A program made the position numbers and the translations under genes. From the IMG/VR virus record IMGVR_UViG_2609459839_000005: a DNA stretch of 24,594 nt; one strand, given 5' to 3'. A model generated the notes under the pieces. It had not been told where the DNA came from, ran no database searches, and saw nothing but the letters and a program-made list of their open reading frames with translations. The DNA is from a virus (taxonomy: Duplodnaviria > Heunggongvirae > Uroviricota > Caudoviricetes). Of the stretch, positions 1,553 through 17,036 are shown in pieces (the stretch's first letter is position 1; each line of letters begins with the position of its first letter).

Positions 1553-1741
1553 TCACGAGGACTGAAGTTTCTCGCAATTAAAATTAATCAGTTTTACTTT
1601 CTGCTCTCTGGAAACGCCTGCTTCTTTTTTACCTGAGAGCATTTTTTCGCATTCTGATTTCGTTAGTTTAGATTTTGAATATCTTGTCCAGTTAGTAGGA
1701 GTGCCACCTTCCTTTTCAATAGTGGCGGTAATTTTATACAT
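1553..1741 (-). CDS. Hypothetical small protein (YdaC-like by position)
   Basis: Track ORF 1553..1813. Preferred start is ATG at 1741 (MYKITATIEKEGG...), 6 nt after GGAG and overlapping the stop of the upstream Lar-like gene. No recognisable motif. Confidence 0.4.
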   Translation of the reverse strand: MYKITATIEKEGGTPTNWTRYSKSKLTKSECEKMLSGKKEAGVSREQKVKLINFNCEKLQSS

Positions 1742-7103: not shown

Positions 7104-7511
7104 AATTATCTCCATTTTTACAAATGAATTTTGTCGATGCGGTGCCTGGTGCCTCCAGGTGACGTTAACCAGTTAACAATTAACGCCGGATAATCCACCC
7201 ATAACACTGATGCTTTTAACTGCGCCGCGTGCGCTTAGCCGCATTCACCGCATCACAAAATTCACTTTAAAAAGGGGCGGCAGGGCAGCTACGGAGTAGA
7301 ACTGGTGCCGCCAAAAACTAGACACAGCAATGTCGTTATTTACAACCGGAGGCGCACTCCCACCATTTAAATTTAACAGACAAGACCGACTCTTTATGGA
7401 TACCGGAAATGCGCCTTCGTATTGTGCCCGGTTTTATTTCACCACCTCCGGGCTTTGGTGGCCTCGGCTATACCCCTACAGCAAGAATATTGAATTAATC
7501 CAATAAATGGT

Positions 7512-8485: not shown

Positions 8486-9000
8486 ATGAACAAAATTTCA
8501 ACATATCGAAAACAGCTTGGGCTGTCTCAAAGACAACTTGCTGTTCAGTTACCACATCACGCAAAGTGGCTTCAACGCTGGCAATGGCAATCAGCAAAGG
8601 TCGTCTGATTCGCGTAAATCAGGGCGGTAAATTTCGTTACTGCATACCGGGCGATAATTTACCAGCAGAGCCGAAAGCAGCATCGGTAGCGGAAACTGAT
8701 GGTAAGGCCTTTCCTCAGCCCGCAGGTGTTGCATTACCAGTACAGGAGGCTGCAACACAGGAAGATATTAAAACAGAAACGGTGGTGGACATTGTGCAAT
8801 CGCTGCCATCGTTTACTGAAACGCGAGCGGATGACCTGGTTTTACCATCGCTGCATATGGCAAACCGCGAACTGCGTCGGGCGAAAAATCATGTCCAGAA
8901 GTGGGAGCGAGTCTGCGCCGCGCTGCGGGAGCTGAACAAGCACCGGGATATTGTTCGACAGATTGTCGATTCCTCCAGTCGTATTGTGTCGGAAAAGTGA
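8486..9000 (+). CDS. Cro/YdaS-like early gene with disrupted reading frame (possible pseudogene)
   Basis: ATG at 8486 with GGAGG 8 nt upstream opens [22 protein letters not shown]…, which stops after 40 codons (TGA 8606-8608). The long track ORF 8455..9000 is in a different frame and has no SD at its own ATG. Confidence 0.4.
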
Positions 9001-9438: not shown

Positions 9439-9689
9439 GCGAATCAAAATGTCAGGTTAATGGCAATCAGATAGAACCGTGTACGGCACTGGCAAAATCC
9501 CTTGAGCATGATGCTGAATACACGACGCGAAAAGGTCTGCTGATATACAAAATCTGGAATGAGAATTTAACTCGCGACCCTGATTTGGTGATGTTGCGTT
9601 CCGGTGAATTTTCTAAATTACCAGTGCGGGTTTCATTTTGTCCGTTCTGTGGTGAAAGTCTGAAAACGTGGGAGAACAGAAATGAATGA
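9435..9689 (+). CDS. Small Cys-motif protein (84 aa), putative zinc-ribbon
   Basis: GTG start overlapping the previous stop (GTGA), with CAGGAGG upstream. Contains KC…PC near the N-terminus and CPFCG near the C-terminus, the same motif as in the Lar-like protein. Confidence 0.45.
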   Translation: MSESKCQVNGNQIEPCTALAKSLEHDAEYTTRKGLLIYKIWNENLTRDPDLVMLRSGEFSKLPVRVSFCPFCGESLKTWENRNE

Positions 9690-9993
9690 AATTAGAGAAA
9701 TACCAGTAGTACGTGATGAATATGGCTGCTGGACGCATCCTGAATATGAAAAATTCTGTGATGGTAGAGAACTTATTTCAACGAAAGAGTTTAACGCCTG
9801 GATGGAGGAAAATAATCTTCAATACGTCCTCTGCTTCAGAGATGAAGGATGTGCTGACCTTGATGCGTGTGATGCTGATATTTCTGCATGGGAACCGGAA
9901 CGACCAGAGGGCAATGGATGGTTTATTGGTTCAATACATGACACCGAAGATGGCCCGGTTTGTGTATGGCTGAGAAATAAGGCCGAAGCATAA
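9682..9993 (+). CDS. Small strongly acidic hypothetical protein (103 aa)
   Basis: ATG overlaps the previous stop (ATGAATGA). About 24 Asp+Glu versus 9 Lys+Arg, plus scattered Cys. Confidence 0.5.
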   Translation: MNEIREIPVVRDEYGCWTHPEYEKFCDGRELISTKEFNAWMEENNLQYVLCFRDEGCADLDACDADISAWEPERPEGNGWFIGSIHDTEDGPVCVWLRNKAEA

Positions 9994-10298
9994 AGGCTAT
10001 AAACCGACTAACAACTAAATACTGAAGATTTAAATCAGAAACGATTTTTATTAAATCCTTAACCGGAGGGATTCTGCACCCTCAGAACATCAGGAGGCCG
10101 TCTGAAAGGGCGGAACAGATAATGCTTACGTTGAAACATTTTATCGACATACCAACATGGTTAGCCGTCATTGCTTTTGTTAAAATACACATCCACTTTT
10201 CTGTGCAATGTTTAACCACTGGTCATATCAAATGGCATTCATGCGAACCATGATATAGAATCATGGCTTGAGAGAGTCGATGAAAGCGCAACTATGGT

Positions 10299-10871
10299 AT
10301 GAGAGACATTGATGTAAGAAAGGCTGTGCATGCCAAGATTCTGAGAGATCATCATAAAGATCCTGACACCCTAATCATTGATGAGTTTACGATGAATCTA
10401 GGGGCTAGCAGAGCTGATATAGCAGTGATCAATGGGCTTATACATGGTTATGAGTTGAAGAGCAAGAGTGATAACTTGCTCAGATTACCAGCGCAGGTGC
10501 AACATTACTCATCAGTGATGGATAAAGTAACGTTGGTTGTCTCTGATTGCCATCTTTATGATGCTTTAAGCATAGTTCCATCATGGTGGGGGATAAAGCA
10601 AGTTACGCAAGGTGCACGGCAAGGTATCCATTTAAAAACAATTCGAACTAGCAAGTTGAATCCACAAGTGGACAAACTTTCCTTAACAATGCTTCTTTGG
10701 AAAGATGAATTGCTTTCCCTATTAAGTGATGTAGGGGAGCTACAGAATTTGAAAAATAAACCTAAACGCGTCTTATGGTCAAAACTCGCCAATAGTATGG
10801 ATGTTGGCGAGCTTCGTGAAGCTGTTCGAGTTAAACTTAAAGCCCGTAAAGAGTGGCGAGTTGCTCAATAA
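10299..10871 (+). CDS. PD-(D/E)xK-motif nuclease-like protein, 190 aa (first gene of candidate defence cassette)
   Basis: Translation has …IDEFTMNLGASRADIAVINGLIHGYELKSKSD…: Asp in a hydrophobic strand, then E-L-K about 12 residues later. AT-rich (about 35-40% GC in sampled 60-nt stretches). Weak SD, so the start is uncertain. Confidence 0.6.
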   Translation: MRDIDVRKAVHAKILRDHHKDPDTLIIDEFTMNLGASRADIAVINGLIHGYELKSKSDNLLRLPAQVQHYSSVMDKVTLVVSDCHLYDALSIVPSWWGIKQVTQGARQGIHLKTIRTSKLNPQVDKLSLTMLLWKDELLSLLSDVGELQNLKNKPKRVLWSKLANSMDVGELREAVRVKLKARKEWRVAQ

Positions 10872-11934
10872 CCTTAGTTATGTGATGGTTTTGCCCAATC
10901 CTACGCCATACCTCTGGGCTACCAAATTTATAGTTACCAGAGGGATTGGCTTTGTAGGCTTGATACTCGTTTGCATAATATTCTATGTCTCTATCTCCCG
11001 CACAGAATGTAGGCCCTGAATATTCTCGATGAGCAAGAATATCCTCACTATGTTTACCATATTGTTCATAACCAAAGCGATTAGCTACTCTTCCTCGAAA
11101 TACCCAAAAGTCATTATCTCCAGAGTATCTGACGCTGGCAGATACGCTAGGGAATCGCGTCGAAAGCCTATTAAAGTCGGGGTGCTGTACTCCATAATCA
11201 CTATAAATCACATTTCTGGCAAGTTCTTTTCTATTCATTAAACTCTGCCATAAAATCCACTCGATTCGAGGTTGAGAATATAGACCAACAGAAATATCAC
11301 TGAGATCTGTAGGAAATGAACCCCCAGAAAGAATCACTTTTCTGTATTCATTGAGGTGCGCCAGATTGTTTATCAATCCCATTGCCAAAGTATATAGTTC
11401 GCCGGAATTAAGTTTATCCTCGGTTAACTCATCTCTTAAGTCAATAATTATATCAATATTTGATAAAGGAATTCCCAGATGATTAATGTAATGCGTTATT
11501 AATTGTGGGTTAACCAGATCTAACGTGGTTAATCTCAAGCATATTTCATTCTGCATTAATTCATCAATCGCTCTTTTATAGTTAGATGGGCGAGTTGGTG
11601 AACTGACAGGAATAACTCTTATCCCCATATCTCTAACTTGATTAACCGCATTTATTATAGGGTAATGATCTTCAGGAGAAATAAAATGCTCTTCAATTAA
11701 TAATCCATCAATATAAACACCTTGCATATCTGAGCAAGATTTTGAGACTTTCTTTCCGAACTCTATAAGAGTCTCGTTATAACTCTTTAAGGCAATACCT
11801 GAATCAGGGTCAATTGGCACTGGTTCAATTTCGAGTAATGGCAAAATTTTTGATTTCTTTTCAATGGATAGCTGCGATAAAGCTGATAACTCAGAACGTT
11901 TCGCTTTCAGAATAGGAATATATGAAATTGTCAT
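10837..11934 (-). CDS. 365-aa partner protein of the cassette (possibly beta/sce7725-like family)
   Basis: Long clean AT-rich ORF (MTISYIPILKAKRSELSALSQL…) converging on the 190-aa gene, with 35 bp of 3' overlap. SD-like AAGG 7 nt ahead of the ATG. Family assignment is recollection only. Confidence 0.62.
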   Translation of the reverse strand: MTISYIPILKAKRSELSALSQLSIEKKSKILPLLEIEPVPIDPDSGIALKSYNETLIEFGKKVSKSCSDMQGVYIDGLLIEEHFISPEDHYPIINAVNQVRDMGIRVIPVSSPTRPSNYKRAIDELMQNEICLRLTTLDLVNPQLITHYINHLGIPLSNIDIIIDLRDELTEDKLNSGELYTLAMGLINNLAHLNEYRKVILSGGSFPTDLSDISVGLYSQPRIEWILWQSLMNRKELARNVIYSDYGVQHPDFNRLSTRFPSVSASVRYSGDNDFWVFRGRVANRFGYEQYGKHSEDILAHREYSGPTFCAGDRDIEYYANEYQAYKANPSGNYKFGSPEVWRRIGQNHHITKVIEQLATLYGL

Positions 11935-12286
11935 GTTAATACCTTATACAGAATCAATTAACAATTAATGGTTCTTCGGACATTGAAATTTATATCGCAA
12001 AAATTGGCAAACTCTCCTCGACTACTCACTTGTGGGTATCCTGGCGTAAAAGGAATGACTTGGCAATACCCGGTGTGATCATAAGTCATTGAAAATGATC
12101 ATTTTTATCAGTCTTTCTTCCATGATGAATGCTAATGCCATTTGATTTGTTGAGGTGAAAACTGTTAAAAATCAAAACGATGTAATTGAAATGAACGTTC
12201 GGTAGCATTCACGCTTTAAATGTTTCTTTTGTGCTGATTGGATGAATTTTGGTCACTTATGATGAGAGATGTTGCAGGAAAAGAAG

Positions 12287-12315
12287 TTGGCATTGATCTA
12301 TTGGATAGTTAGAAT
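12287..12315 (+). promoter_or_regulatory. Sigma70-type promoter candidate for the hok-family mRNA
   Basis: TTGGCA (12287-12292), 17-bp spacer, TAGAAT (12310-12315). Predicted transcript of about 415 nt to the terminator at about 12737, typical of hok mRNAs. Confidence 0.4.
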
Positions 12316-12490
12316 TGCTGCGGGTGCTTGAGGCTATCTGCCTCAGGCATGAACACCAAAAGGCAGATAGAGAAAAGCCCCAGTTAACATTACGCGTCCT
12401 GCAAGACGTTTAACATTAATCTGAGGCCATATCTATGCGACACATAGAGATTAGCCTCTTACGGACCGAAAGGTCAAGGAGAAGCAGGCT

Positions 12491-12646
12491 ATGAAGCAGC
12501 AAAAGGCGATGCTAATCGCCCTGATCGTCATCTGTTTAACCGTCATAGTGACGGCACTGGTAACGAGGAAAGACCTCTGCGAGGTACGAATCCGAACCGG
12601 CCAGACGGAGGTCGCTGTCTTCACAGCTTACGAACCTGAGGAGTAA
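12491..12646 (+). CDS. Hok/Gef-family type I toxin (51 aa, single TM segment)
   Basis: Not in the ORF track (below 60 aa). Hand translation: MKQQKAMLIALIVICLTVIVTALVTRKDLCEVRIRTGQTEVAVFTAYEPEE, with the Hok/Gef signature LVTRKDLCEV…RTGQ…EVAVF…AYE. AAGGAG lies 8-13 nt upstream. Confidence 0.82.
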   Translation: MKQQKAMLIALIVICLTVIVTALVTRKDLCEVRIRTGQTEVAVFTAYEPEE

Positions 12647-14990: not shown

Positions 14991-15066
<76 letters not shown>

Positions 15067-15069
15067 TAT

Positions 15070-15144
<75 letters not shown>

Positions 15145-16378: not shown

Positions 16379-16771
16379 ATGTCTGAACCCTTATCCGGTT
16401 CCGGCACGGCTGCGGCGCTGGGTGGCGCGACGGTATTCGGGCTGTTTACCGGGATGGATTTCGGGATTGTGTTTGGCGCGTTCGCCGGGGCGTTATTTGT
16501 GGCAACGATGCCGCAGTCACTTTCAGTCTGGCGCGTGGTGGCACATTTTCTGGTGTCGTTTATTGTCGGCGTGCTGGGAGCGCGTGTGCTGTCAGCCTGG
16601 ATTGCATCAAAAACAGGGTATGACGGTACATCAGCAGATGCGCTTTGCGCGGTGCTGGTCTCGGTTGTGTCGGTGAAGATTCTCTCGTTCATCCACCAGC
16701 AGGATATTGCATCGCTGGTGTCCGGTGTGTTCTCCCGCCTGCGGGGTGGAGGAGGCGGCAATGTTAAGTAA
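16379..16771 (+). CDS. Holin-like membrane protein (about 130 aa, Gly/Ala-rich TM segments)
   Basis: ATG at 16379 after AGGAGG. Three predicted hydrophobic segments, directly upstream of a second membrane protein and the endolysin remnant. Confidence 0.5.
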   Translation: MSEPLSGSGTAAALGGATVFGLFTGMDFGIVFGAFAGALFVATMPQSLSVWRVVAHFLVSFIVGVLGARVLSAWIASKTGYDGTSADALCAVLVSVVSVKILSFIHQQDIASLVSGVFSRLRGGGGGNVK

Positions 16772-17036
16772 CCTTCCCGGATTGCTGAATGTGGTGTTAT
16801 GCACAGTTATCGTGCTGACGCTCTTTTTTTATCGTCGCCGTGATTCCAGACATAAACCGCTGGTGTCATGGCTGGCCTGGCTGCTGATGCTGCTGTATGC
16901 CTTTGCGCCCCTCAGTTATCTGTGTGGTCGCCCGTTAGCAACGGGCTGGCTGGAAGTGTTTTTTAACCTGCTGTTCTGCGTGCTGGTGATACGCGCACGC
17001 GGGAACGTCACAAAAATCTTTCCATTGTTGAGGTGA
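16761..17036 (+). CDS. Second small membrane protein of the lysis cassette (holin/antiholin-like, 91 aa)
   Basis: ATG at 16761 after GGAGG, overlapping the previous gene. Two or three TM segments and a basic stretch (YRRRDSRHK). Confidence 0.45.
   Translation: MLSNLPGLLNVVLCTVIVLTLFFYRRRDSRHKPLVSWLAWLLMLLYAFAPLSYLCGRPLATGWLEVFFNLLFCVLVIRARGNVTKIFPLLR

Follow-up and report, generated by a model that had tools for sequence, protein, structure and literature searches.

A convergent beta-cII gene pair in a Rac-like prophage

We analysed a stretch of 24,594 nucleotides from a virus of the class Caudoviricetes (IMG/VR record IMGVR_UViG_2609459839_000005), referred to in its full length as the window, which represents a Rac-like Escherichia coli prophage. 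The window corresponds to IMG/VR contig IMGVR_UViG_2617270987_000005. Positions 10299 to 11934 hold a cassette of two convergent genes, one encoding a 190-amino-acid (aa) protein of the cII/sce7726 family and the other a 365-aa protein of the beta family; both have homologues in the gop-beta-cII locus of satellite P4. An original prediction, made from the DNA letters alone, had proposed this pair as a candidate phage-defence system. Both open reading frames (ORFs) lie where that prediction had placed them, in convergent orientation, and share 35 bp at their 3′ ends, which makes an intergenic terminator impossible. The cassette and its immediate surroundings comprise the following features.

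10299..10871, plus strand: cII/sce7726-family gene, 190 aa; predicted PD-(D/E)xK nuclease (E29, D40, E52-x-K54, Q66) with a C-terminal helical bundle (residues ~126-181)
10837..11934, minus strand: beta-family gene, 365 aa; predicted (beta/alpha)8 triosephosphate isomerase (TIM) barrel with conserved polar residues at the C-terminal strand ends and H350-H351 in the last helix
10837..10871, no strand assigned: 35-bp overlap of both 3′ ends, coding for the two C-termini, one on each strand
10232..10261, plus strand: sigma-70-like promoter candidate upstream of cII, ATGGCA-18-TAGAAT, with 9 of 12 matches in a consensus scan (weak evidence)
11935..12320, minus strand: AT-rich leader/promoter region of beta, with a Shine-Dalgarno-like AAGG ~9 nt before the ATG and two small ORFs (43 and 40 aa)
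10150..12310, no strand assigned: swapped-in cargo segment, approximate extent, between the DUF977/small-ORF backbone and sok/hokD

The guanine-cytosine (GC) content of the cassette is 38.4% (cII, 40.8%; beta, 37.2%) and that of positions 10000-12320 is 37.9%, compared with 45.6% in the window as a whole and 46% in both flanking regions. The segment is AT-rich, by a smaller margin than the original prediction had implied with a backbone of roughly 50% GC. Matches to cassette-free prophages end at or before ~10148 on the left and restart at ~12310 on the right, and these positions bound the cargo segment.

A 16-nt inverted repeat (15/16 bases; 10224-10239 and 12134-12149) brackets the cassette, with one copy of the motif upstream of each gene. 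We rejected it as a shared operator or terminal repeat: it is not maintained across homologous cassettes, and shuffled sequences sometimes match its score, so that it is probably due to chance.

The 190-aa protein is a predicted PD-(D/E)xK nuclease

Profile hidden Markov model (HMM) searches placed the 190-aa protein in the P4 cII/sce7726 family. It matched NCBIfam sce7726_fam (E 1.6e-56; 191.1 bits, cutoff 70), PHROG 984 and the PADLOC model 'cll', which was built on P4 cII (E 2.4e-28), and its homologues carry the Pfam family PF26915, "Phage_P4_cII". Compared directly with P4 cII, it shares 28% identity (E 2e-17). The family is large, with ~3,300 clusters at 50% identity when matches at E <= 1e-10 are counted.

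AlphaFold2 returned a confident model (predicted local distance difference test score, pLDDT, 94.3) with the restriction-endonuclease-like alpha/beta core fold for which structure prediction had been suggested as a check. The nuclease motif originally read as D-x12-ELK is also present, except that its spacing is x11 rather than x12 (D40-x11-E52-L-K54). Loss of the D...ExK alignment in homologues had been named beforehand as evidence against the prediction; instead, E29, D40, E52, K54, D58, R62 and Q66 are identical in 81 of 81 non-redundant homologues (26-71% identity), P4 cII included. On the strength of this fold and these catalytic residues, the 190-aa protein is a predicted PD-(D/E)xK nuclease with presumed nuclease activity.

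Listed among its closest known counterparts are SPO1766 (PDB 3dnx), which is annotated as MmcB-like in one source, as well as NucS, Can2 and type II restriction endonucleases. Compared with SPO1766 and the nucleases of this fold, the 190-aa protein has an additional helical domain at its C-terminus and a TIM-barrel protein as its obligate neighbour. Its sequence is not significantly similar to that of any solved protein. A search with the profiles of both cassette families against PDB sequences gave no meaningful match and thus no sequence-related solved structure.

The 365-aa protein is a predicted TIM barrel of the beta family

The 365-aa protein belongs to Pfam Beta_protein (PF14350, E 3.2e-52) and closely matches the third component of PD-lambda-2 in PADLOC (PD-Lambda-2_C; PDLC03983, E 1.7e-41; PDLC03984, E 5.3e-38). 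Its match to the PADLOC 'beta' model, which represents P4, is weak (E 1.5e-4). Nevertheless, it aligns with P4 beta over its full length (23% identity, E 8e-9), which bears out the relationship to the P4 gop-beta locus that had been suggested. The earlier description of the protein as beta/sce7725-type holds for the beta family and fails for the sce7725 subfamily, as the NCBIfam sce7725 model scored 12.3 bits against a cutoff of 60 and covered the N-terminal 35 residues only.

The structure model of this protein is a (beta/alpha)8 barrel (pLDDT 93.3), with all eight units present. Polar residues conserved in 84 homologues (K10/K12, E15, D76, R134, D161/D165, R223, D246 and Y270) lie at or just past the C-terminal ends of the barrel strands, and an H350-H351 pair is present as well. 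As TIM-barrel enzymes have their active sites at this position, an enzymatic or ligand-binding role seems plausible.

Beta and cII form a conserved core with variable upstream genes

We scanned one genome per species with the beta profile, which yielded 80 loci from more than 10 phyla, and pooled these with loci fetched earlier. A convergent, 3′-overlapping cII gene was found at every beta locus for which downstream sequence was available; only two loci depart from this, both at the end of a contig. The overlap spans 14-158 bp, with most values at 35-50 bp. Approached from the cII side in viral contigs, an adjacent convergent beta gene was present in 77 of the 79 loci with room for one, at a spacing of -14 to +59 bp. 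Beside an intact cII, beta was disrupted or absent in three of 79 viral loci, through an insertion sequence (IS)-associated rearrangement (L105), a frameshift (L137) or the lack of any beta gene (L135).

The region upstream of beta, classified in 85 loci, is variable. Nothing recognisable precedes beta in 30 loci, which include the window and all examples from Enterobacterales, Firmicutes, Chryseobacterium and Psychrobacter. In 22 loci, HigB and an Xre-M78 peptidase gene stand upstream (PADLOC PD-Lambda-2_A, E 7e-37; PD-Lambda-2_B, E 3.5e-143). A further 18 (L043, L046, L058-L062, L068, L073-L081 and L088) have Xre-M78 and a ~200-aa protein without Pfam or PADLOC match, followed by beta and the convergent cII. 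A variant Xre-M78 together with a ~150-aa protein occurs in four loci, the ~150-aa protein alone in one more, and Xre-M78 alone in five; the rest either carry a partial module or offer too little sequence for classification. Genes upstream of beta usually adjoin its start or run into it, suggesting translational coupling. Near-universal pairing combined with variable upstream genes indicates that beta-cII is the conserved core, to which gop or Xre-peptidase modules are add-ons.

HigB and ImmA/IrrE genes were also seen without beta-cII on the Paraburkholderia graminis plasmid pPHS1_P (L095), where unrelated genes, including one for DUF6527, follow them. The A/B module of PD-lambda-2 is thus independent and mobile in its own right.

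Homologous pairs occupy diverse positions, among them recognised variable or defence slots: between portal and gpA, beside HicAB, in a P2-like prophage; the Rz-Nu1 (lysis-terminase) slot of a lambdoid prophage; an integrase island; and the chromosomes of Paenibacillus and Psychrobacter. The pair therefore moves as a two-gene unit between slots of different mobile elements. When both genes were compared with stand-alone homologues from other genera (Dickeya, Phytobacter, Samsonia, Cedecea, Photorhabdus, Tatumella, Rahnella and Aeromonas), the proportion of nonsynonymous differences (pN) was 0.20-0.35 and that of synonymous differences (pS) 0.71-0.87, with synonymous sites saturated. As pN lies well below pS, both genes are under purifying selection. 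Together with the family-profile E values of 1.6e-56 and 3.2e-52, this places both far beyond chance ORFs; they are real genes.

Relation to gop-beta-cII, PD-lambda-2 and sce7725/sce7726

Two experimentally validated systems contain proteins of this pair. Gop-beta-cII of P4 (DefenseFinder Rst_gop_beta_cll) guards against lambda and P1; gop is toxic without beta, and P4 beta behaves as its antitoxin (Rousset et al. 2022, PMC9122126). A phage accessory gene, orf184, sets off the toxicity of this system (bioRxiv 10.1101/2023.04.06.535777). In PD-lambda-2, the Xre-peptidase is toxic and the HigB-like protein neutralises it, while the beta homologue PD-lambda-2C is required for defence and not for toxin neutralisation (Vassallo et al. 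2022, PMC9519451).

The cassette resembles the P4 locus in having homologues of both beta and cII, in their convergence, and in occupying a variable cargo slot of a mobile element. In P4, gop and beta lie on the plus strand with cII convergent on the minus strand. The differences are that P4 carries gop, a small membrane toxin, which the window lacks; that the P4 genes are separated by a 27-bp gap with a terminator, whereas those of the window overlap by 35 bp; that P4 cII has 264 aa, including a C-terminal extension, compared with 190 aa in the window; and that the host element is a satellite in one case and a Rac-like prophage in the other. The window beta also fits PD-Lambda-2_C far better than the P4 beta model (1.7e-41 versus 1.5e-4).

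With PD-lambda-2, the cassette shares the beta-family third component, whereas the HigB-like A protein and the toxic B protein, the Xre-M78 peptidase, are missing from the window. Published PD-lambda-2 consists of three genes and no cII; in our sample, however, a convergent overlapping cII accompanied all 22 PD-lambda-2-type loci (L007, L024, L028-L034, L037, L040, L044, L045, L048, L052, L053, L055-L057, L063, L064, L067 and L083). As for the sce7725/sce7726 pair, the 190-aa protein is a clear sce7726 member, whereas its partner falls below the sce7725 cutoff and belongs to the broader Pfam Beta_protein family.

Searches for the upstream genes of these relatives were negative. A tblastn search with P4 gop detected no gop near the cassette, the best match in the window being at 16761-16889 (E 0.011), and the two ORFs of 40 and 43 aa in the 385-bp region preceding beta do not recur in homologous cassettes. 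On these two tests, we rejected a gop-like gene or a gop remnant at this position. Likewise, jackhmmer with representatives of the HigB-like (A) and Xre-M78 peptidase (B) proteins found neither in the window, although the same screen found both in the 22 loci above, and no same-strand ORF takes up the A/B position upstream of beta. The pair does not have the organisation of a type II toxin-antitoxin system, that is, a co-directional operon with an indispensable antitoxin, as its genes are convergent and cII stays intact beside a disrupted or missing beta in L105, L137 and L135.

The cassette occupies a variable cargo slot

The Rac-like identity of the prophage is evident from RalR/RalA, RecE/RecT-type genes, DicF, hokD, DUF1367/DUF1364 and a Q-like region. 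RNA features and the neighbouring hok gene are positioned as follows.

1557-1735, plus strand: RalA small RNA, the antitoxin of RalR (Rfam)
7275-7326, minus strand: DicF small RNA (Rfam)
12322-12493: sok RNA (Rfam RF01794, 108 bits)
12491-12646, plus strand: hok, adjoining the start of the beta gene
14991-15141, plus strand: two tRNA genes (Rfam)

The RalA, DicF and tRNA matches are typical features of Rac/Qin-type prophages.

An identical cassette is present in 93 of 5,426 complete E. coli genomes, and it also occurs in the LT-II phage Rac-SA53. Both genes had already been named in public records: in RefSeq as "sce7726 family protein" and "beta family protein", and in the Rac-SA53 record, whose depositors noted "beta" and "CII phage-like protein". 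In the O111 strains, exemplified by E. coli O111:H- 11128 (L097), IS1203 lies between beta and hok with both cassette genes intact. In Rac-SA53 (L096), IS1 is found 166 bp upstream of cII, and the cassette itself is uninterrupted.

In the relatives E275a and Rac-SA53, the slot lies between DUF977 plus two small ORFs and hokD, and an intact ydaU/ydaV-type replication module stands upstream of the same cassette. The cassette is therefore not a stand-in for the replication module, contrary to the proposal that it sits where this module should be. The ydaT/ydaU/ydaV-type module of these relatives is missing from the window owing to a separate deletion with a junction at ~8542-8551, where (in the 8486-8608 region) a truncated cro-like helix-turn-helix ORF is fused into the middle of a DUF1627 gene. 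This junction is not found in any of the 5,426 complete E. coli genomes. The prophage in the window looks replication-defective.

The DUF977-hokD slot (~9440-10150 to 12310) is a variable-cargo hotspot of Rac-like prophages. In other E. coli it carries genes for QueH, RelA/SpoT-domain proteins, S-adenosylmethionine methyltransferases, KilA-N proteins, and DUF551, DUF4014 and DUF7167 proteins. This variability, along with the homologous pairs in slots of other elements, supports the view of the cassette as horizontally acquired cargo. Hok does stand next to the cassette as described, adjoining the beta start; the suggestion that it signals a defence island was not supported, as hok/sok is present in ~4,700 genomes compared with 93 for the cassette and thus belongs to the conserved prophage backbone.

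A candidate stand-alone anti-phage module

Considering this evidence, we lean, without great assurance, towards the two-gene beta-cII cassette being an anti-phage module. It represents the stand-alone form of a core common to P4 gop-beta-cII and E. coli PD-lambda-2, carried as prophage cargo, and its likeliest function would be to shield the lysogen from other phages, either through exclusion or through abortive infection. The cII-family protein, comprising a putatively active PD-(D/E)xK nuclease and a small helical domain resembling DNA-binding domains, would be the sole effector, while the beta TIM barrel with its enzyme-like conserved pocket may sense infection or control the nuclease. The overlapping convergent 3′ ends could link expression of the two genes, either by transcriptional interference or by way of antisense RNA. 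In relatives, this core appears translationally coupled to modules upstream of beta, namely to gop, to HigB and an Xre-M78 peptidase, or to Xre-M78 and other proteins. We hold these details of the cII and beta mechanism with less confidence than the anti-phage role itself.

The label of candidate phage-defence system is reasonable, since both validated relatives contain proteins of the pair, whereas defence by the two genes on their own is an extrapolation. Several observations weigh against it. Toxicity in the validated relatives maps to gop and to the Xre-M78 peptidase; both are absent from the window, as is the HigB-like partner of the peptidase, and it is this absence that makes two-gene defence an extrapolation. 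The three studies of these systems (PMC9122126; bioRxiv 10.1101/2023.04.06.535777; PMC9519451) assign no role to cII. Moreover, the published ECOR42 PD-lambda-2 clone extends just 396 bp beyond beta and cannot hold an entire cII; any cII there would be truncated, so that the validated clone probably lacks a complete one, yet defence worked. The intact cII genes without a working beta (3/79) argue that cII is no potent toxin held in check only by beta. Structure matches of the beta TIM barrel are generic and do not pin down its activity, promoter and terminator scans of the cassette region gave no more sites than shuffled sequences, which puts the promoter evidence at chance level, PADLOC holds no system consisting of beta and cII proteins alone, and a literature search for an experiment on the two-gene beta/sce7726 form found none.

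We also considered whether the pair could serve the prophage itself, as an addiction-like maintenance module or as a regulator of the element's own life cycle. P4 cII takes its name from a clear-plaque phenotype. The pair is always on mobile elements, the cassette lies beside another addiction module, hok/sok, and P4 beta acts in an antitoxin-like manner toward gop (PMC9122126). We nevertheless regard this explanation as unlikely: the genes are convergent and not a co-transcribed toxin-antitoxin operon, intact cII coexists with disrupted beta, unlike in classic addiction, the pair is also found on non-phage islands and chromosomes of many phyla, and both characterised relatives protect against phage. 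It is improbable, too, that the pair operates in a restriction-modification-like fashion, with beta as a TIM-barrel enzyme that, like TGT/DpdA, modifies or marks self DNA or nucleotides, and with cII as the nuclease for unmarked DNA.

The lack of gop, HigB and Xre-M78 genes, and the ~385 bp of AT-rich non-coding DNA upstream of beta, where relatives have such genes, might instead point to an inert remnant of gop-beta-cII or PD-lambda-2 after toxin loss. This seems quite improbable, given that stand-alone loci make up 30 of 85 and span Enterobacterales, Firmicutes, Bacteroidota and Moraxellaceae, that both ORFs are unbroken, keep every catalytic residue and show a pN far lower than pS, that the two-gene unit moves between different element slots, and that the upstream DNA keeps no similarity to gop. 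Finally, the pair could be a sensor-regulator acting in trans on toxins encoded elsewhere, such as hokD or other resident toxin-antitoxin modules. The modularity of the core, which is joined to upstream toxin modules of at least four kinds, would fit this, as would the requirement of PD-lambda-2C for defence and not for toxin neutralisation. We consider it very improbable, as the pair occurs in other contexts without hok, an IS element parts the intact cassette from hok in O111 strains, and the strictly conserved nuclease site argues that cII itself is catalytic.

Returning to the anti-phage module, a bolder version of it can be advanced tentatively, as a proposal that we think more apt to be wrong than right. 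Beta-cII would be an autonomous and very widespread two-gene immune module in which a TIM-barrel enzyme of a previously uncharacterised kind controls a PD-(D/E)xK nuclease, with the conserved 3′ overlap coupling the two genes in antisense. On this view, gop-beta-cII and PD-lambda-2 would be this core with toxin modules added to it, and the three-gene definition of PD-lambda-2 would fall short of a fourth conserved gene.

Implications

The genes and their family names are already known from public annotation, as is the P4 link from the depositors of Rac-SA53. What appears to be new is that the toxin-less two-gene form is a common, selected and mobile unit, and that cII is a near-universal partner of beta, PD-lambda-2 included. 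The latter suggests that the current definition of PD-lambda-2 leaves out a gene that is conserved in it. As the pair is common to two validated and mechanistically opaque defence systems and often stands alone, it offers a minimal tractable system in which to address the activity of the beta TIM barrel and the question of whether the cII nuclease is in fact the effector. For Rac-like prophages of pathogenic E. coli, including those of O111 and O103 Shiga toxin-producing strains and the LT-II phage Rac-SA53, the cassette provides a candidate exclusion function.

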